NCBI GenBank assembly: GCA_037133055.1
Contig: JBAXOY010000006.1
Coordinates: 1-47,258 of the forward strand
Origin: Chlamydiota bacterium
GTDB lineage: Bacteria; Auribacterota; Tritonobacteria; UBA1439
Length of the DNA: 47,258 bases
Direction: 5' to 3'
The notes under the pieces were generated by a model. It did not search any database. It was not told the DNA's origin and saw only the letters and a list, made by a program, of their open reading frames with translations. Position 1 is the stretch's first letter; each line of letters begins with the position of its first letter. A program made the translations under genes and the position numbers. Shown here one piece after another: positions 38,641-46,059 of the stretch.

Positions 38641-39201
38641 TCACTTCCGATTTTTCCTACGGGGCGCCGTGTAGCGCGCCCGCGCCTCTTTTGCGCTGAA
38701 ACCGATCGGACGGCGCGGCGGAACGGGCGGCGTCATGAGTTGTCGAATGGCGTCGAAAACCATCCGGAACCGGGCATCGTACTTTTTCTCCAGATCCGCC
38801 AGTTTCCCGGCGAGGTCTTTATGGCTTGCAAGAATCTGCCGCAACCTGACAAATGCGCGCATGATTTCGATGTTCACGCAGACCGCGCGAGGGCTTCTGA
38901 GAATGCCCGACAGCATGGCCACGCCCTGTTCGGTAAAAGCAAGAGGGAGATACTTGGCGTGTTGACCGCGCTTTAAGATGCCAAATTGGCATCTTAAAGA
39001 ATCGTATTCCTTCGCGGTAAGATGAAACATGAAATCGGGCGGGAACCGCTCACAATTTCTTTTAACAGCCCTTTTTACGTGCGCGGTAGTGACTCCGTAT
39101 AAATCCGCGAGATCGACATCCAGCATAACCTTATGCCCCCTGATGAGCAGGATTGCGTGTTCAATGCGCTCAACAGGGACGGGCAGCCGGTTGTTGTTCA
39201 T
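38641..39201 (-). CDS. ORF6N-domain DNA-binding protein
   Basis: [16 protein letters not shown]....[26 protein letters not shown]; lower GC; TTGACA-17-CATGCT upstream. Confidence 0.92.
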
Positions 39202-39312
39202 AACCCCCGGACGTGATAGACAACACCTTCGAACGTAGCATGAACCGGACAAAATACCCTGTCAACCTTCAATCGCGTTCCTGCACGTATCAGTGACGAT
39301 GAAGCATTTTTA

Positions 39313-39351
39313 CCCCCCGCCCTATCCCTCCCCCTCAAGGGGGGAGGGGAA
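39313..39351. repeat. REP-like GC palindrome overlapping the bioD stop codon
   Basis: CCCTATCCCTCCCCCTCAAGGGGGGAGGGGAA. Confidence 0.7.
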
Positions 39352-40080
39352 TGATCCTGTCGGGGATTTGGGATCGCGCATCAGGGTTTCGGAAATCCCA
39401 TCCGCGGCAATGACGAGGCGTTCCCACGCATCCGGTGCGCACGGATCGTCCCCGCCCCACGGGATCGAACCGAGGAAAGGGACGCCGCAGAGTTCCCCGA
39501 TGCAGGCGGCGTTGTCCCTCAGCATCTCCCCGTCTTCCCCCGGACGGGAGGCGTTGAAGACGAAGCCCTCGACCGGGATGCCGCGGGAGCGCGCGTGAAG
39601 AATGGCAAGGGCGGCGTGGTTGATCGTGCCGAGGCCGGGGCGGGCGACGACGAGGAGGGGGATCCTCCACCTGAGCGCAAGGTCGGCGACGGTAAATTTC
39701 CCCTCGAGCGGCACGAGGAGCCCGCCGACGCCTTCCACCAGGAGAATCCGATGTCTCCGCGTCATCGATTCAAAGGCCGCGTCGAGCGCCGCGAGGTCGA
39801 GTGTCCTCCCCTCCCTCCCTGCCGCGACCGACGGCGCGAGCGGCGCCCTGTAGCGGACGGGATTGACGAGCTCCGCGGGGTCGAGGCGGCCGAGGATCCG
39901 CTCGAAAAAGAGCGCGTCGGGCGACATCAGGCCGCGCGCCGTATCCCCGCAGCCGCTCGCCACGGGTTTCATCACGCCCGCGTCGATGCCGCGGCGGCGG
40001 AGGCCCGAGGCGAGGAGGGCGGTCACGAGGGTCTTGCCCACGCCGGTGTCCGTGCCGGTGATAAAGAGAGCCCTCATCAT
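39322..40080 (-). CDS. bioD: Dethiobiotin synthase
   Basis: TGTDTGVGKT, KPVASG, APLAP, VEGVGG, LGTINH. Confidence 0.96.
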   Translation of the reverse strand: MMRALFITGTDTGVGKTLVTALLASGLRRRGIDAGVMKPVASGCGDTARGLMSPDALFFERILGRLDPAELVNPVRYRAPLAPSVAAGREGRTLDLAALDAAFESMTRRHRILLVEGVGGLLVPLEGKFTVADLALRWRIPLLVVARPGLGTINHAALAILHARSRGIPVEGFVFNASRPGEDGEMLRDNAACIGELCGVPFLGSIPWGGDDPCAPDAWERLVIAADGISETLMRDPKSPTGSFPSPLEGEG

Positions 40081-40108
40081 TGACGCATTCCCTTTGTAGG
40101 AGAGCTTT

Positions 40109-41470
40109 TCATTCCGTCTCCTCCCTGATACAGCGCGCGATAACTCCGCACAGGAGCGCAAGGTCGCGGCGGCTGATCGCGAGGGGCGGAAGGATCACGA
40201 TGACATCCCCGAGCGGCCTGAGCATCACCCCGTAGTTCCTCGCCCGCATGCAGACCCGGTGCCCCACCCGCGCGGCATACGCGTACGGCCGCTTCGTGCG
40301 CTTCGACCGCACGAGCTCTATCCCCGCCATGAAACCGCACTGGCGCACATCCCCGACGTGCGGTAACCGGCCGATACCCTCGAGCAGGCGCCCGAGGAGG
40401 GCGATCTTCGGCCGGAGGCGCTCCAGCAGCCGCTCCTTCTCGAACAGATCGAGGCTCGCGAGGGCTGCGGCGCAGGCGAGGGCGTTCCCCGTGTACGAGT
40501 GCCCGTGAAAAAATGTCTTCCTCCCGCGGAACGGGGCGCGGAACCCGTCATAGATCCGCTTCGTCGTGAGCGTGGCGGCGAGCGGCAGATATCCGCCGGT
40601 GATCCCCTTCGCCAGCACGAGGAAATCCGGCGAAACCCGCTCCCGCTCGCAGGCGAACATCGTCCCGGTGCGGCCGAAACCGGTCGCGACCTCGTCGGCG
40701 ATGAGGAGGACGCCGTGCGCGCGACAGAGCCCCGCGACCGCGGCGAGGTGCCCCGGCGGGGCGACGAGCATCCCGCCCGCCGCCTGGACGAGGGGCTCGA
40801 TGATGAGCGCCGCGATCTCGCTTCCGCGCCGCCGGAGGAGCCCCTCGAGCGCGGAGAGACAGTCGCGACCGCACGAGGCGCGCTCCTTCCCGAGCGGGCA
40901 CCGGTAGCAGTAAAAGGACGGCCCCGCGAGCGTCGGGAAGAGGAGGGGCCCGTACACCTCGCGGAAGAGGTCGATCCCCCCGACGCTCGCCGCCCCGAGC
41001 GTGTCGCCGTGGTAGGCGTTCGGGAGGCGGATGAACTTTCGCTTCCGCCCGTAGTTCCCGCCCCTGTTCCGCCAGTACTGGAACGCGAGCTTCAGCGCGA
41101 TCTCGACCGCCGTCGACCCGTCGTCGGAGTAGAAGACCTTTTCGAGCCCGGGCGGAGCGATGCGCGCCAGCGCCTCCGCGAGTTCCGCGGAAGGGACGCT
41201 CCCGAGGCCGAGCAGGGTGGAGTGCGCGAACCTGCCGAGCTGTCCCGTGATCGCCCGGTCGATCTCCCTCTTCCGGTGCCCGTGGATATTGACCCAGAGC
41301 GACGAAACGCCGTCGAGGTACCGCCGCCCCTGCGTGTCCTCGATCCGGAAGCCCTTCGCCGCCCGGATCACCACCTGGTCTTCCCGCTCCCAGTCCCGCA
41401 TCTGCGTGAACGGGTGCCAGACATGGCGGCGGTCTTTCCGCATCGCGTCGTTGTTTCCCCGTCTCCTCAC
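40109..41470 (-). CDS. bioA: Adenosylmethionine-8-amino-7-oxononanoate aminotransferase
   Basis: WHPFTQM, SSLWVN.HG, YHGDT, DEVATGFGRTG, KGITGGY, HGHSYTGN. Confidence 0.96.
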   Translation of the reverse strand: MRRRGNNDAMRKDRRHVWHPFTQMRDWEREDQVVIRAAKGFRIEDTQGRRYLDGVSSLWVNIHGHRKREIDRAITGQLGRFAHSTLLGLGSVPSAELAEALARIAPPGLEKVFYSDDGSTAVEIALKLAFQYWRNRGGNYGRKRKFIRLPNAYHGDTLGAASVGGIDLFREVYGPLLFPTLAGPSFYCYRCPLGKERASCGRDCLSALEGLLRRRGSEIAALIIEPLVQAAGGMLVAPPGHLAAVAGLCRAHGVLLIADEVATGFGRTGTMFACERERVSPDFLVLAKGITGGYLPLAATLTTKRIYDGFRAPFRGRKTFFHGHSYTGNALACAAALASLDLFEKERLLERLRPKIALLGRLLEGIGRLPHVGDVRQCGFMAGIELVRSKRTKRPYAYAARVGHRVCMRARNYGVMLRPLGDVIVILPPLAISRRDLALLCGVIARCIREETE

Positions 41471-42648
41471 GGCGTCCCTCCCCCGATGCTTCTGAACGCG
41501 TCGAGCAGGCGGTCTATATCCTCATCCGTGTGCGAGGCCATGACGCTCAGGCGCAGGCGGCTCGACCCTTTCGGCACGGTCGGCGGGCGGATCGCCGGGG
41601 CGAGGATCCCGCGGGCGAGGAGCTCCCGCGAGAGCCGCGCCGCCGCGCCCGCCTCCCCCACCCGCACCGGCACGATCTGGAACGCGCTCCCCATCGTGTC
41701 GAATCCGAGACCGGCGAGCCCTTTTCGCAGCCTCTCCGCCCTGCGGAGCACGACGCGCCTCAATGACGGCCGCGCGCGCACGATCTTCAACGCCGCGAGC
41801 GCGGCGGCGCAGGCGGCGGGGGGCGGGGCCGTGGTGTAGACGAAACTCCGCGCGCGATGCCTCAGGTAGTCGATGAGCGCGGCGGAGCCCGCCACGAACC
41901 CCCCGCTCCCCCCGAGGGCCTTGCTCAGCGTCCCCATCGAGACATCCACCGCGTCCTCAACCCCCAGAAGCTCCGCCCCCCCGCGCCCGCGCTCGCCGAG
42001 AACGCCCGTCGCGTGCGCCTCGTCCACCATCAGGCACGCGCCGTATCGCCGCGCCAGGCCGGCGATCCTGTCGAGCGGGGCGAGGTCGCCGTCCATGCTG
42101 AAGAGGCTGTCGGTGACGACGATCCTCCTGCGCGAGGCCGCGCTCACGGCGAGTATCCTCTCGAGCTTCGCGGTGTCGCCGTGCGGGTAGACCCGGACCG
42201 CGGCGCCCGAGAGGCGGCAGCCGTCCACAATGCTCGCGTGGTCGAGCTTGTCGATGACGAGCGTGTCGCCGGGGCCCGCGAGCGCGCCGAGCACCCCGAG
42301 GTTTGCGGCGTACCCCGAGGAAAAGGCGATCGCCGCCTCCCTGCCCTTGAACGCCGCGAGCTCGCGCTCGAGCTCGTCGTGGAGCCGCATCGTCCCCGAG
42401 ATGAGGCGCGATGCCCCGGATCCCCACCCGTACCGCCCGATCGCTTCGCGGGCCGCTTCCGCCACCGCCGGGTGCTCCGCGAGGCCGAGGTAGTTGTTCG
42501 CGCAGAAGCAGAGATACTCGCGCCCGCCGACGACGACGCGCGGCCCCTGCGCGCCGTCGACGAGCCGCGGCTCGCGGTACAGGCCCGCGGCCCTGATGAG
42601 ATCGAGCTCCCGCAGGAGCTGTTCCGAGAGGGGGGACGCCGCGGTCAT
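41467..42648 (-). CDS. bioF: 8-amino-7-oxononanoate synthase
   Basis: NNYLGL, GSGASRLISG, HAS..DG, FSMDGD, DEAH, TLSKALG, IRPPTVP. Confidence 0.95.
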   Translation of the reverse strand: MTAASPLSEQLLRELDLIRAAGLYREPRLVDGAQGPRVVVGGREYLCFCANNYLGLAEHPAVAEAAREAIGRYGWGSGASRLISGTMRLHDELERELAAFKGREAAIAFSSGYAANLGVLGALAGPGDTLVIDKLDHASIVDGCRLSGAAVRVYPHGDTAKLERILAVSAASRRRIVVTDSLFSMDGDLAPLDRIAGLARRYGACLMVDEAHATGVLGERGRGGAELLGVEDAVDVSMGTLSKALGGSGGFVAGSAALIDYLRHRARSFVYTTAPPPAACAAALAALKIVRARPSLRRVVLRRAERLRKGLAGLGFDTMGSAFQIVPVRVGEAGAAARLSRELLARGILAPAIRPPTVPKGSSRLRLSVMASHTDEDIDRLLDAFRSIGGGTP

Positions 42649-43865
42649 CGCTCCGGCCTCCCCGCGACGAGCACCCCGATCTGCCCGCCGAACCCGCACG
42701 AGATCGAGAGCGCGTTCTCCATCGCGCGCGGTTTCGCCTCGAGCGGCGTGCAGTCAAGATCGCACTGCGGATCGGGAGAACGCAGGTTGAGCGTGGGGGG
42801 AATCACGCCGCGATCGAGCGCAAGGAGCGCGACGATGAACTCCACGGCCCCGGCCGCTCCCAGGAGATGCCCGGTCGCCGGTTTGGTCGAACTGATCGAG
42901 AGGCGGCGCGCCGCCGGACCGAACGCCCTTGTGATGCCTTTCGTCTCCGCGGGATCGTTGAGGCGGGTCCCCGTGCCGTGCGCGTTGACATACTGGACCT
43001 CTTCCGGCCGCACCCCCGAGCGGCGCAGGGCCTCCGCGATGATCGCCCCGAGCGCCTCCCCCGAGGGGTCCGGCGCGGTCATGTGATACCCATCCCCTCC
43101 CATCGCCCCCCCCCTGAGCCGGGCGCGCGGCCGCGCCCCGCGAGCGCGCGCGTGCCGTTCCTCTTCAAGCACGACCATGCCGCACCCCTCGCCGAGCACG
43201 AATCCGCGACGACTTTGATCGAACGGCCTGCACGCCTCCGCGGGCAGGCCGCCGTCCGCCGCGAGAACCCCCATCCGCAGGTATCCGCGCAGCAGCATCG
43301 GCGTGACGCAGGACTCCGCGGCGCCCGCCAGAACGACATCCGCCCCGCCCGCCAGTATCGTCCGCATCCCCGCAAGGATCGCGACCGCCCCCGTGGCACA
43401 CGCGGCCATGGGCGCGGTGACGGGCCCCGCGACGCGATACCGACCCGCGAGCGACGCCGCCGGGCTGTTCGAAAAAAAACAGCCGGCGTCGTCCGCATCC
43501 ACCGCGCCGGGGCCCCCCCGGTGATACGCCCCGCAGATCTCCTCGAGGGCGCGGTAGGCGTTCTTGCTCGATCCGACGCTGATCCCCGCCCGTTCGCGGC
43601 ACGCCGCGATATCCAGCGCCGCATCCCGCAGCGCCGCCCCGGCGGCGTCCAGGGCGAACCGGACATGGCGCCGCGCCGTGTCCTCAAACCGTGAATCGCC
43701 GACCGGGCAGTAAAACCGCGCCCCGGTATCTCTCAACGGGCCCTCGGGCAGAAAGGCCGCGCCGCTTTCACCGCTCGTGATCCTCCGCCACACGGTGTCC
43801 GGATCGCACCCGAGCGGGGTGACCAGCCCGATGCCGGTGACGACGACCGCGCGCCCGGCGTTCAT
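42645..43865 (-). CDS. FabF-like beta-ketoacyl-ACP synthase paralog within the biotin operon
   Basis: VVVTGIG, catalytic ACATG, HMTAP, NAHGTGT, GHLLGAAG; atypical GSSK and SCGFGG. Confidence 0.9.
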   Translation of the reverse strand: MNAGRAVVVTGIGLVTPLGCDPDTVWRRITSGESGAAFLPEGPLRDTGARFYCPVGDSRFEDTARRHVRFALDAAGAALRDAALDIAACRERAGISVGSSKNAYRALEEICGAYHRGGPGAVDADDAGCFFSNSPAASLAGRYRVAGPVTAPMAACATGAVAILAGMRTILAGGADVVLAGAAESCVTPMLLRGYLRMGVLAADGGLPAEACRPFDQSRRGFVLGEGCGMVVLEEERHARARGARPRARLRGGAMGGDGYHMTAPDPSGEALGAIIAEALRRSGVRPEEVQYVNAHGTGTRLNDPAETKGITRAFGPAARRLSISSTKPATGHLLGAAGAVEFIVALLALDRGVIPPTLNLRSPDPQCDLDCTPLEAKPRAMENALSISCGFGGQIGVLVAGRPER

Positions 43866-44596
43866 GCCCACCGGCGTATTCTCCCGTCCAGCGCGAAGAT
43901 CTGGCCCGACACCCCTTCCATCCCCGCCAGGTGCACGATGAACCGCGCCGAGGCCCCGACATCCGCGTGCCGGTTGAGGACGCTCTCCGCGCGCGCGCGG
44001 GCTCGAGCCTGCGGAGAGGCCGTCATGCCCATCCCCGTGAGCATGAAGCCGGGTATGACCGCGTTGGCCCGGACGCCGGAGCCGCCGAGCTCTCGCGCGA
44101 TGCTCATGGTGAACCCGACGAGCGCGGCCTTCGACGCCGCGTACGCGCTCTCCCCCCTCCCGCCGCTCACGCCGAGGATCGAGCCGACGGTGATGATATG
44201 CCCCGTCCCCCGCCGCAACATCAGGGCCGCCGCCGCCCGCGCGCAGAGGAATACCCCCTTGAGGTTCGTGCCGAGCACCGCGTCCCAGTCGGCCTCGCGT
44301 GTGGAGACGCACAGCGCCTCGTGCGCGATCCCCGCGTTGGCCACGAGGACATCCAGCCGCCCCCACCGCGCCGACAGCTCCCCGGCCATCGCCTCGACCT
44401 CGCGCGCGTCCGCGACATCGGCCCGGCAGGCGAACGCCTCGCCGCCCGCGGCGGCAATCCCCGCCGCGACGCGTTCCGCCTCGTCCCGCGAGGATCGATA
44501 GTTCACCGCGACGCGGTAGCCGGCCCTGGCGAACTCGGCGGCCGCGACGGCGCCGAGGCCGCGCGACGCGCCGGTCACGAGAACGACCTTCTTCAT
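43862..44596 (-). CDS. FabG-like 3-oxoacyl-ACP reductase paralog within the biotin operon
   Basis: TGASRGLG, ANAGI, S...YAASK, PGF..T.M. Confidence 0.9.
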   Translation of the reverse strand: MKKVVLVTGASRGLGAVAAAEFARAGYRVAVNYRSSRDEAERVAAGIAAAGGEAFACRADVADAREVEAMAGELSARWGRLDVLVANAGIAHEALCVSTREADWDAVLGTNLKGVFLCARAAAALMLRRGTGHIITVGSILGVSGGRGESAYAASKAALVGFTMSIARELGGSGVRANAVIPGFMLTGMGMTASPQARARARAESVLNRHADVGASARFIVHLAGMEGVSGQIFALDGRIRRWA

Positions 44597-45567
44597 CGCG
44601 CGCACCCCACCTCCAGCCCCAGCCGCCGGAGCATGCGCAGGTCGTCGCCGGGGGCGCGCCCCTTCGCGGTGAGGTAGTCCCCGACCATCATCGCGTTCGC
44701 GCCTGCGGCGAAGATCCTTTCCTGCATCTTCCCGAGCACGAGTTCCCTGCCCCCCGCGACCCGTATCTCCGCGAGGGGAAGGACGAAACGGAAGACGGCG
44801 ATGATCCGCAGCGCCTCGCGCGCGGGGAGCGGGCGCTTCTTCCCGAGCGGCGTCCCCCGGACGGGCATCAGGAAGTTGAGGGGGACCGAATCGACCCCCA
44901 ATTCCCGCAGGGCGAGGGCGAGGTCCACCCGGTCCCCCCACGTCTCCCCGAGTCCGAATAGTCCCCCGGAGCAGACCTGGAGACCCGCGCGCCGCGCCGC
45001 TCGCACCGTCCGCACGCGGTCGGCCCACCGGTGAGTCGTGCAGGCCGACGGGAAAAACCGCGGGGAGGTCTCGAGGTTGTGGTGATAGCGCGACAGGCCG
45101 GCCCTTTTGAGCCGCCCCGCCCCGGCCTCCCCTATTTCGCCGAGCGAGGCGCAGGGGATGATCCCTCCCATCCGCCGAATCGCCCGGACCGCGGCGCACA
45201 CCCGGGCCACATCGCCCCGACCCGCCGCGCGCCCGCTCGTCACGACGCCGAAGCGGACCGCGCCCATCGCGCGCGCGTTCCGGGCTGCCGAGAGAAGGGC
45301 CGCGACGCCGCGCATCGGGTACACCGGCGCGCCCGCCGCGTGGCGGGAGGACTGGGCGCAGAAGGCGCAGTCCTCTCCGCAGAGGCCGGAGCGGGCGTTT
45401 GTGATCGCGCAGAGCGCGACCCTGTTTCCCCCGCATTCCCGGCGAAGCGCGTCCGCGCCCCGGAGAAGGTCCCCGAGGGGAGCCCTGACCAGGGAGAGCG
45501 CGGTCACGCGGGAGATTCTCTCCCCGACGCGGATCCTGGACAACGCGCGGAGAACCGTTTTGTTCAT
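44593..45567 (-). CDS. bioB: Biotin synthase (radical SAM)
   Basis: CGEDCAFCAQS, YHHNLETS, VCSGG, VPLNFL, R.AGGRE; alternative start 45576. Confidence 0.96.
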   Translation of the reverse strand: MNKTVLRALSRIRVGERISRVTALSLVRAPLGDLLRGADALRRECGGNRVALCAITNARSGLCGEDCAFCAQSSRHAAGAPVYPMRGVAALLSAARNARAMGAVRFGVVTSGRAAGRGDVARVCAAVRAIRRMGGIIPCASLGEIGEAGAGRLKRAGLSRYHHNLETSPRFFPSACTTHRWADRVRTVRAARRAGLQVCSGGLFGLGETWGDRVDLALALRELGVDSVPLNFLMPVRGTPLGKKRPLPAREALRIIAVFRFVLPLAEIRVAGGRELVLGKMQERIFAAGANAMMVGDYLTAKGRAPGDDLRMLRRLGLEVGCAR

Positions 45568-45576
45568 GGCAGGCAT

Positions 45577-45608
45577 TTGTTACGCATTATCATGGATATG
45601 GTTGACAA
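45577..45608. promoter_or_regulatory. Putative BirA operator
   Basis: TTGTTACGC-N14-GGTTGACAA: one near-ideal and one degenerate half of TGTCAACC-N14-GGTTGACA, immediately upstream of bioB. Confidence 0.65.
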
Positions 45609-45630: not shown

Positions 45631-46059
45631 TTATCTCTCCCTGAACCCGCGCTGCACCGGGTCCCACCGGAGCCCTTTCCAGAGCAGCGCGAAGACGACG
45701 GCGGCGCCCGCCACCGACGCCAGCATTTTCAGGCGGCGGAAGCGCCCGACATGTATCGCGCGCGCCTCGATATAGCCCTCCCTATGGAAGATCCCCCTGA
45801 CGCCCACGTAGGTCCCCGATTTGAGATACCGGGAGATCCCCCTGACGGGGATCTCCCTGCCGTCCCACTTCAGGGTGAACCCGCCCTCCATGACCCGGCC
45901 GATGACCGACTCGTGCGGCGAGTAGACCATCGCGCCATCGTGGGCCGCGGGGTCCGCGAGGCACCCGTCAAGCGTCTCCCCCGGCTCGCGGAGCCCGCCG
46001 TACGCGCAGAAGAAGGCGATGAGAGCGGCAAGGAGCACCATCGCGGAGAGACGGATCAT
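45631..46059 (-). CDS. Hypothetical membrane protein (two TM segments flanking a small beta domain)
   Basis: ATGA overlap with hemA; coding-like composition. Confidence 0.65.
   Translation of the reverse strand: MIRLSAMVLLAALIAFFCAYGGLREPGETLDGCLADPAAHDGAMVYSPHESVIGRVMEGGFTLKWDGREIPVRGISRYLKSGTYVGVRGIFHREGYIEARAIHVGRFRRLKMLASVAGAAVVFALLWKGLRWDPVQRGFRER

Follow-up and report, generated by a model that had tools for sequence, protein, structure and literature searches.

A ketosynthase-ketoreductase pair in the biotin operon of an Auribacterota bacterium: candidate enzymes of a methyl-free route to pimeloyl-ACP, with a possible counterpart in cyanobacteria

The element described here is a biotin operon in which a ketosynthase paralogue of the FabF type (FabF') and a ketoreductase paralogue of the FabG type (FabG') are encoded between bioB and bioF. 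It lies in contig JBAXOY010000006.1 (assembly GCA_037133055.1, Chlamydiota bacterium; Auribacterota in GTDB), of which the whole stretch analysed, 47,258 nucleotides in length, is called the window. There is little doubt that the feature is real and serves pimelate supply in one way or another. It probably does so by methyl-free synthesis of pimeloyl-acyl carrier protein (ACP), in which FabF' and FabG' would carry free-carboxyl intermediates through two elongation cycles. The textbook rationale for BioC and BioH is that fatty-acid enzymes cannot accept a free carboxyl group. An earlier note on this DNA had suggested free-carboxyl substrates for the paralogues, and the suggestion now has a residue-level basis: Lys101 of FabF' and Arg239 of FabG' are single residues that may lift this limit. 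We infer the chemistry, the primer and the step done by each enzyme from the sequences. G, C and L numbers are our labels for genomes, contigs and loci.

The catalytic triad of FabF', Cys156-His296-His333, is intact. Lys101 aligns with Ile108 of Bacillus subtilis FabF (4LS5; the site is Phe in 4LS6). Ile108 and F202 together form the back gate, located at C7-C8 of the bound chain, and the I108F substitution stops elongation at C8 (PMC9006962). The gate residue was Lys or Arg in every one of the 27 biotin-group rows (22 Lys, 4 Arg and, from alignment A3, the Lys of G009), a group that includes the stand-alone ketosynthase of G052. It was Lys or Arg in none of the 59 other ketosynthase rows, from which L127 (Lys) was set aside and counted in a blind set. 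This set consisted of 162 ketosynthase domains from scans of the collection with the FabF' alignment, scans that were dominated by ordinary fabF. The gate was Lys in two of the 162, L052 and L127, and L052 was the sole ketosynthase of the set within a bioB-SDR-ketosynthase-bioF-bioA-bioD operon (SDR, short-chain dehydrogenase/reductase). A search of the ESM Atlas with the ketosynthase returned generic ketoacyl-synthase clusters only. Hu and Cronan considered that the hydrophobic pockets of fatty-acid synthesis enzymes argue against a free carboxyl group, and anticipated a basic side chain at the BioZ pocket's distal end for its free-carboxyl primer (PMC7645780). The BioZ pocket residues are given as S84/R147/S287 (Zhang et al., PMC8024396).

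The catalytic residues of FabG', S139/Y152/K156, are also intact, and the conserved N146 is missing. Its C-terminus reads LD(G/S)R, which contains Arg239, where FabG reads VDGG. Arg239 was found in 22 of 22 FabG' proteins chosen by synteny and in 13 of 13 further ones; all 93 housekeeping rows have Gly at the site. A set of 132 database proteins selected by the motif indicates a broad FabG' family; this count is circular for Arg239 itself. In cluster look-ups of 20 FabG'-like proteins, the sole named taxon was Ca. Desantisbacteria.

FabF' and FabG' are not the only copies in the source genome (G000, 92% complete). A separate housekeeping plsX-fabH-fabD-fabG-acpP-fabF operon is located on C54, its fabF scoring 661 bits against TIGR03150, and a FabZ over cut-off is encoded on C13. 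BioC, BioH, BioW, BioG and the P450 had no match over cut-off in any of five genomes (G000, G002, G003, G007 and G008). Each of the five has exactly one FabH, and no second FabH of the BioZ type was found over cut-off. The BioC proteins and esterases of relatives had no orthologue in G000, the best match being at E 2e-5. The earlier statement that the operon has no pimelate-supply gene of the known kinds is in keeping with this; no known pimelate route was found in the 92%-complete G000, in a search that did not use dedicated models for BioJ, BioV or BioE.

Other sets of fatty-acid-like genes were seen in G000. The housekeeping fabF on C54 is followed by genes for an acyl-CoA dehydrogenase, EtfB and a ferredoxin-fused EtfA (L559:7591-10839); this set is a flavin-based candidate for the enoyl reductase that serves the synthesis of fatty acids and pimelate. 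The same contig carries a second set resembling fatty-acid synthesis genes (C54:14718-17485; two FabZ-like genes, FabG, a long ACP and an AcpS-like gene). On C18 (27003-29738) a pair of ketosynthases, one with Asp replacing the second catalytic His, resembles a ketosynthase/chain-length-factor pair, and similar pairs are present in relatives.

Linkage of the pair to biotin genes is conserved across the phylum, as the following survey of 79 genomes indicates. A bioB match was found in 50 of them; flanks were read for most bioB matches and 20 other SDR or ketosynthase places, with G050, G059, G076 and G077 (f5) left out. An adjacent fabG'-fabF' pair occurs in 30 of the 79 genomes, from nine families. 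It adjoins bioB or bioF in 29 of these 30, the exception (G031) being cut by a contig end, and where bioB has been relocated the pair still heads bioF-bioA(-bioD). In 13 of the 23 families, the fabG'-fabF' genes track bioF or bioB. Full-length BioC occurs in three genomes (G021, G045 and G013), and neither FabG' nor FabF' was seen in any of these (two of the five ketosynthase matches of G013 were unread). The genuine BioC of the phylum scores 152-167 bits, under the TIGR02072 cut-off. A BioC-model match in G070 was not counted, as it scored better as trans-aconitate methyltransferase.

Nine genomes have fabG' without fabF'. The lone fabG' precedes bioF in five (G002, G073, G036, G020 and G072), follows bioB in three (G071, G069 and G070) and is free-standing in G074. 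No basic gate was found in the ketosynthase genes read from these nine genomes; G072:C90 and the ketosynthase domains of several long frames resembling polyketide synthases were unread. G002 belongs to the same genus and is 96% complete, and 5 bases separate its fabG' from bioF; this means that the loss of fabF' is real in G002. The other eight genomes are 64-89% complete. The FabG/FabF pair of the earlier note is therefore present and bio-linked but not obligatory, FabF' being missing from nine genomes that keep FabG'.

In the bioB-bioF-bioC-bioD-bioA operons of G021 (L263:7532-8347) and G045 (L264), bioF is followed by bioC without an intervening esterase gene. In addition, bioB stands directly before mnmA (tRNA 2-thiouridylase) in six genomes of two families (L247:5480-7643 in G007:C63; L257, L259, L260, L262 and L265 in G056, G024, G032, G015 and G040). 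In G007 this is a second bioB copy in an apparent sulfur-relay cluster (cysK-, TusA-, LarE-, IscS- and ThiF-like genes, judged by eye). An mnmA-like gene also follows the bio operon of L052.

According to the open reading frames of the window, the operon consists of six minus-strand genes in the order bioB-fabG'-fabF'-bioF-bioA-bioD (Table 1). All four 4-bp start/stop overlaps that had been described from bioB to bioA were confirmed at their positions, and bioD comes next. The second ATG of bioB, at 45567, agrees with the start sites in relatives. The start of bioD is the ATG at 40080; a longer reading frame (TTG at 40161) would overlap bioA. BioB, BioF, BioA and BioD passed their NCBIfam cut-offs, whereas FabG' and FabF' missed the housekeeping equivalog cut-offs. 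The operon has no ACP or dehydratase gene, as had been noted, and none turned up with ACP/FabZ-like queries, either in the window or in the related bio loci that were scanned. Small ACP genes hidden in the operon gaps of relatives were considered and rejected: no ACP/FabZ-like match was obtained, and the gaps were read as non-coding. Among named homologues, those of 'Candidatus Aureabacteria' (NCBI: Ca. Auribacterota) are the nearest.

Table 1. Genes of the biotin operon and its operator, with positions in the window.
Feature	Positions	Strand	Basis
bioD, dethiobiotin synthase	39322..40080	-	TIGR00347, 162 bits vs cut-off 83
bioA, DAPA (7,8-diaminopelargonic acid) aminotransferase	40109..41470	-	TIGR00508, 514 bits vs cut-off 405
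bioF	41467..42648	-	TIGR00858, 462 bits vs cut-off 426
fabF', ketosynthase paralogue	42645..43865	-	TIGR03150, 352.5 bits, under cut-off 493.75
fabG', SDR ketoreductase paralogue	43862..44596	-	TIGR01830, 198 bits, under cut-off 297.75
bioB, biotin synthase	44593..45576	-	TIGR00433, 369 bits vs cut-off 225
BirA operator TTGTCAACC-N14-GCGTAACAA	45577..45608	-	published BirA consensus (PMC545781), 2 mismatches

The BirA-like operator proposed over the operon proved to be the top match to the BirA consensus in the genome; the two runner-up sites have three mismatches each. It overlaps a sigma70-like promoter, with the -35 element from 45614 and the -10 element to 45586. All seven relatives aligned have a similar inverted site upstream of bioB; the site of G002 is perfect, and that of G001 is the most degenerate. 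The BirA gene on C47 encodes an N-terminal segment resembling a helix-turn-helix, and BirA would repress the operon. The accB-accC-like genes on C4 point to a use for biotin in the source genome. Directly upstream of the operator is a gene for a membrane-type protein of 142 residues (45631-46059, minus strand) with no Pfam or NCBIfam match. The same protein is found in this position in G000, G001, G004, G006 and G007, and in the window it comes after a short hemA (343 residues). Directly downstream of bioD is a gene with an ORF6N domain (38641-39252, minus strand; phage antirepressor-like).

In the proposed pathway, FabF' and FabG' would be dedicated to biotin and make pimeloyl-ACP from unmethylated dicarboxylic intermediates, with housekeeping ACP, FabD and FabZ and an enoyl reductase being borrowed. 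Condensation of a malonyl primer with malonyl-ACP would give 3-oxoglutaryl-ACP, which FabG' would reduce while Arg239 holds the free carboxylate. Dehydration and reduction would lead to glutaryl-ACP. The glutaryl group would then be loaded by FabF' on Cys156, where the gate Lys101 might pair with the omega-carboxylate and cap the chain length, and its condensation would give 3-oxopimeloyl-ACP. After a second reductive round, pimeloyl-ACP would be handed to BioF. The two enzymes seem to be modular, some lineages retaining FabG' only. FabG' might be required chiefly to reduce the short 3-oxoglutaryl intermediate, in line with its being kept in genomes that have lost FabF'. In genomes without fabF', condensation would have to fall to the housekeeping FabF, and B. 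subtilis is a precedent for condensation by this enzyme (one database name agrees).

Several observations weigh against this two-cycle synthesis. The placements of Lys101 and Arg239 in the pockets are predicted from alignment. Two Lys-gated ketosynthases stand apart: L127:7974-9263 (Ca. Latescibacterota) follows prfA-prmC in a locus without a bio gene, and L313:6153-7340 (G052) stands alone in a genome without a bioB match. The absence of FabF' from G002 and eight other genomes means that it is not universally required. The survey counts include related genomes, which are not independent of their kin. A search for an enoyl reductase of the FabK type, which did not extend to FabI and FabV, found none in G000 or G002. 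FabG' has Ser173 at the position that we take, on an assumed numbering offset, to be equivalent to Arg172 of Escherichia coli FabG, where 83 of 93 housekeeping rows have Arg. Arg172 is reported as needed for ACP binding (PMC13293336), and FabG' may therefore act on coenzyme A (CoA) thioesters. Furthermore, the C7 product of BioZ was completed by E. coli FabG, FabA and FabI (PMC7645780), so that FabG' would be unneeded for the C7 step.

An unlikely alternative is a one-cycle route like that of BioZ, in which FabF' would only extend a glutaryl thioester, derived from catabolism or crotonyl-CoA carboxylation, and FabG' would reduce the C7 product, possibly on CoA. The position of the gate suits a C5 dicarboxylic primer, the loss of the ACP-binding Arg172 equivalent is in keeping with it, and the acyl-CoA dehydrogenase-EtfBA set stands after the housekeeping fabF. 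BioZ itself works in this way and refuses malonyl-CoA as primer (PMC7645780). However, this route leaves the nine genomes with FabG' and no FabF' unexplained, since housekeeping FabG sufficed in the BioZ assay, and the acyl-CoA dehydrogenase scores 303 against the glutaryl-CoA dehydrogenase cut-off of 470.

A cryptic masked route is improbable. An unrecognised methyltransferase and esterase would replace BioC and BioH here, and the pair would merely elongate the methyl ester efficiently. G000 is 92% complete; it has 22 matches to generic methyltransferases, scoring 63 bits at best, and a single alpha/beta hydrolase (81 bits; BioH cut-off, 207), and the real BioC of the phylum also falls below the model cut-off. 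The methyltransferase matches, however, span only the part of the model that binds S-adenosylmethionine (SAM), the BioC and esterase queries from relatives go no further in G000 than the value given above, and a BioH match is absent in G002. In addition, Lys or Arg in a greasy pocket would be unfavourable for an uncharged ester. That the pair is an operon passenger whose product is unrelated, either a lipid or, together with BioF, an alpha-oxoamine, is most improbable: two Lys-gated ketosynthases stand alone and the cyanobacterial relative described below adjoins no bio gene in any locus read, but the pair is translationally coupled, has a BirA site upstream, tracks bioF or bioB in over half of the families and excludes BioC.

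A similar ketosynthase with a basic gate is present in Cyanobacteriota. FabF' matched PRK05952/NF004618, the cyanobacterial second FabF, with 267.8 bits, under the family cut-off of 455. Members of this family have a Cys-His-His triad and an Arg gate (SSR) in 30 of 30 loci. They share with FabF' the triad, the basic gate, eight further diagnostic columns and the exclusion with BioC; they differ in having Arg where FabF' mostly has Lys, in being unlinked to bio genes and in having no FabG' partner in the five genomes checked. No bio gene was found near the ketosynthase in 30 loci read with 1.5-kb flanks or 20 read with 5-kb flanks (three genomes in both), and no FabG' of the LDxR type was found among 23 SDR matches in five cyanobacterial genomes. 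In two genomes the ketosynthase gene is tail to tail with a presumed hoxH, which we recognised by its N-terminus and not by a family search. The same arrangement has been published for fabF (slr1332) (PMC2662882). An Rfam scan of 20 of the loci gave no match, so the identification as Slr1332 rests on the hoxH synteny.

Among 151 Cyanobacteriota genomes, the PRK05952 ketosynthase exceeds its cut-off in 52, and full-length BioC is present in 59 (above the cut-off in 53 and below it in 6, with at most 16 methyltransferase candidates scored per genome); the overlap is zero. The 53 genomes with BioC over cut-off (1.7-2.3 Mb) are probably one non-photosynthetic lineage and count little. Therefore, a narrower set of 61 genomes was taken, consisting of the 52 carriers and nine genomes picked by their place in the collection ordering. 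The 52 carriers have bioB and no BioC. Six genomes without the ketosynthase possess bioB, and in them bioC and an esterase-like gene adjoin bioF and/or bioD; four of these six are single-contig chromosomes. Two have neither the ketosynthase nor BioC nor bioB, and the last, G228, has bioB and neither of the other two. The absence of the ketosynthase was rechecked at a looser threshold in five of the nine non-carriers. A cyanobacterial second FabF that has an Arg gate, is mutually exclusive with BioC and is accompanied by bioB in all 52 carriers is new here.

Trees of FabF' and the cyanobacterial ketosynthases were built with the gate columns removed. Unconstrained IQ-TREE searches grouped the PRK05952 ketosynthases with FabF', with support by the Shimodaira-Hasegawa-like approximate likelihood ratio test (SH-aLRT) of 99 for 73 rows (quick search) and 93.6 for 44 rows, the latter with one long-branch intruder included. 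The FastTree support for the grouping was 0.49. The alternative, in which the PRK05952 ketosynthases group with cyanobacterial FabF, was not rejected by the approximately unbiased (AU) test (p-AU 0.76), the constrained tree lying 20.5 log-likelihood (lnL) units above the quick tree; in the smaller set it was 15.9 lnL worse and again not rejected (p-AU 0.25). Of the diagnostic columns, the cyanobacterial ketosynthases agree with FabF' in nine and with ordinary FabF in six. A shared origin is thus favoured by these sequences, not proven; as the alternative tree was not rejected and the columns are split, convergence is possible. The functional argument for the cyanobacterial ketosynthase is independent of a single origin.

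We lean towards the view that basic-gated FabF paralogues, the Slr1332 type included, are a widespread and previously uncharacterised pimeloyl-ACP synthase for biotin. They would perform the first stage in Synechocystis and most oxygenic cyanobacteria sampled, alone there and with FabG' in the source phylum, and would be lost in genomes that carry a bioF-esterase-bioC operon or no longer have bioB. A review lists the synthesis of pimeloyl-ACP in Synechocystis as undetermined and BioC and BioH as absent (PMC7133116), and slr1332 has been treated only as a fatty-acid FabF (PMC5798194). No literature on slr1332 in biotin synthesis turned up in a search that did not cover subscription journals. 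A different cyanobacterial locus, L441:1-2310 (G200:C1), is probably a sphingolipid-like or secondary-metabolite cluster; in it, an SDR gene comes after the gene for a BioF-like alpha-oxoamine synthase that begins with an ACP-like segment. If the two-cycle synthesis is correct, the pimelate route would be oxygen-independent and SAM-free, which would be useful for biotin production. The cyanobacterial link, if borne out, would fill the pimeloyl-ACP gap in a model organism.

Compared with FabF and FabG of fatty-acid synthesis (TIGR03150 and TIGR01830), FabF' and FabG' share the fold family and catalytic residues but fall under the equivalog cut-offs and carry the changes Ile108 to Lys and VDGG to LDGR, with R172 missing. 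The BioC-BioH/G/K route likewise leads to pimeloyl-ACP by fatty-acid elongation chemistry; unlike it, the present system has no methyltransferase or esterase, and the charge would be accommodated, not masked. BioZ of alpha-proteobacteria is also a ketosynthase paralogue in a bio operon, with a free-carboxyl primer and polar or basic pocket residues, as predicted for FabF'. However, BioZ is a FabH-type enzyme (Cys-His-Asn) using glutaryl-CoA, whereas FabF' is of the FabF type (Cys-His-His) and has its own reductase.

The nearest precedent is the bio cluster predicted in Desulfovibrio (PMC545781). It has transposon fitness support, the FabF-, FabG-, ACP- and FabZ-like bio genes of D. vulgaris being needed without biotin, while its biochemistry is undefined (PMC10102598). 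The earlier note was right about this precedent and its undefined biochemistry but overlooked the genetic support. In 201 Desulfobacterota genomes with 172 bioF matches, 70 of the loci were read, and no cluster of this type, nor any ketosynthase, was found in them. The best 30 FabG'-profile matches in these 201 genomes lack LDxR where the C-terminus aligned, and most are in fab operons. Several bioB-bioA-bioF-bioD operons of Desulfobacterota (L480, L481, L488 and others) show neither bioC nor a ketosynthase within 6 kb of bioF. The available parts of PMC9909488 and PMC11089781 do not describe the present module, and no literature on a two-gene module or a basic Ile108 substitution turned up, subscription journals not being covered. 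The extended Desulfovibrio cluster (DVU2558-DVU2565 and DVU1220) resembles the present operon in having FabF- and FabG-like genes in a BirA-regulated bio operon without bioC/H/G/W, and methyl-free elongation to pimeloyl-ACP has been proposed for it. It differs in having its own ACP, FabZ-like dehydratases and a nitroreductase, none of which the present operon contains; some relatives of the source genome also do without FabF'. The module is most likely a reduced, modular analogue of the Desulfovibrio route, standing outside it by gene content.

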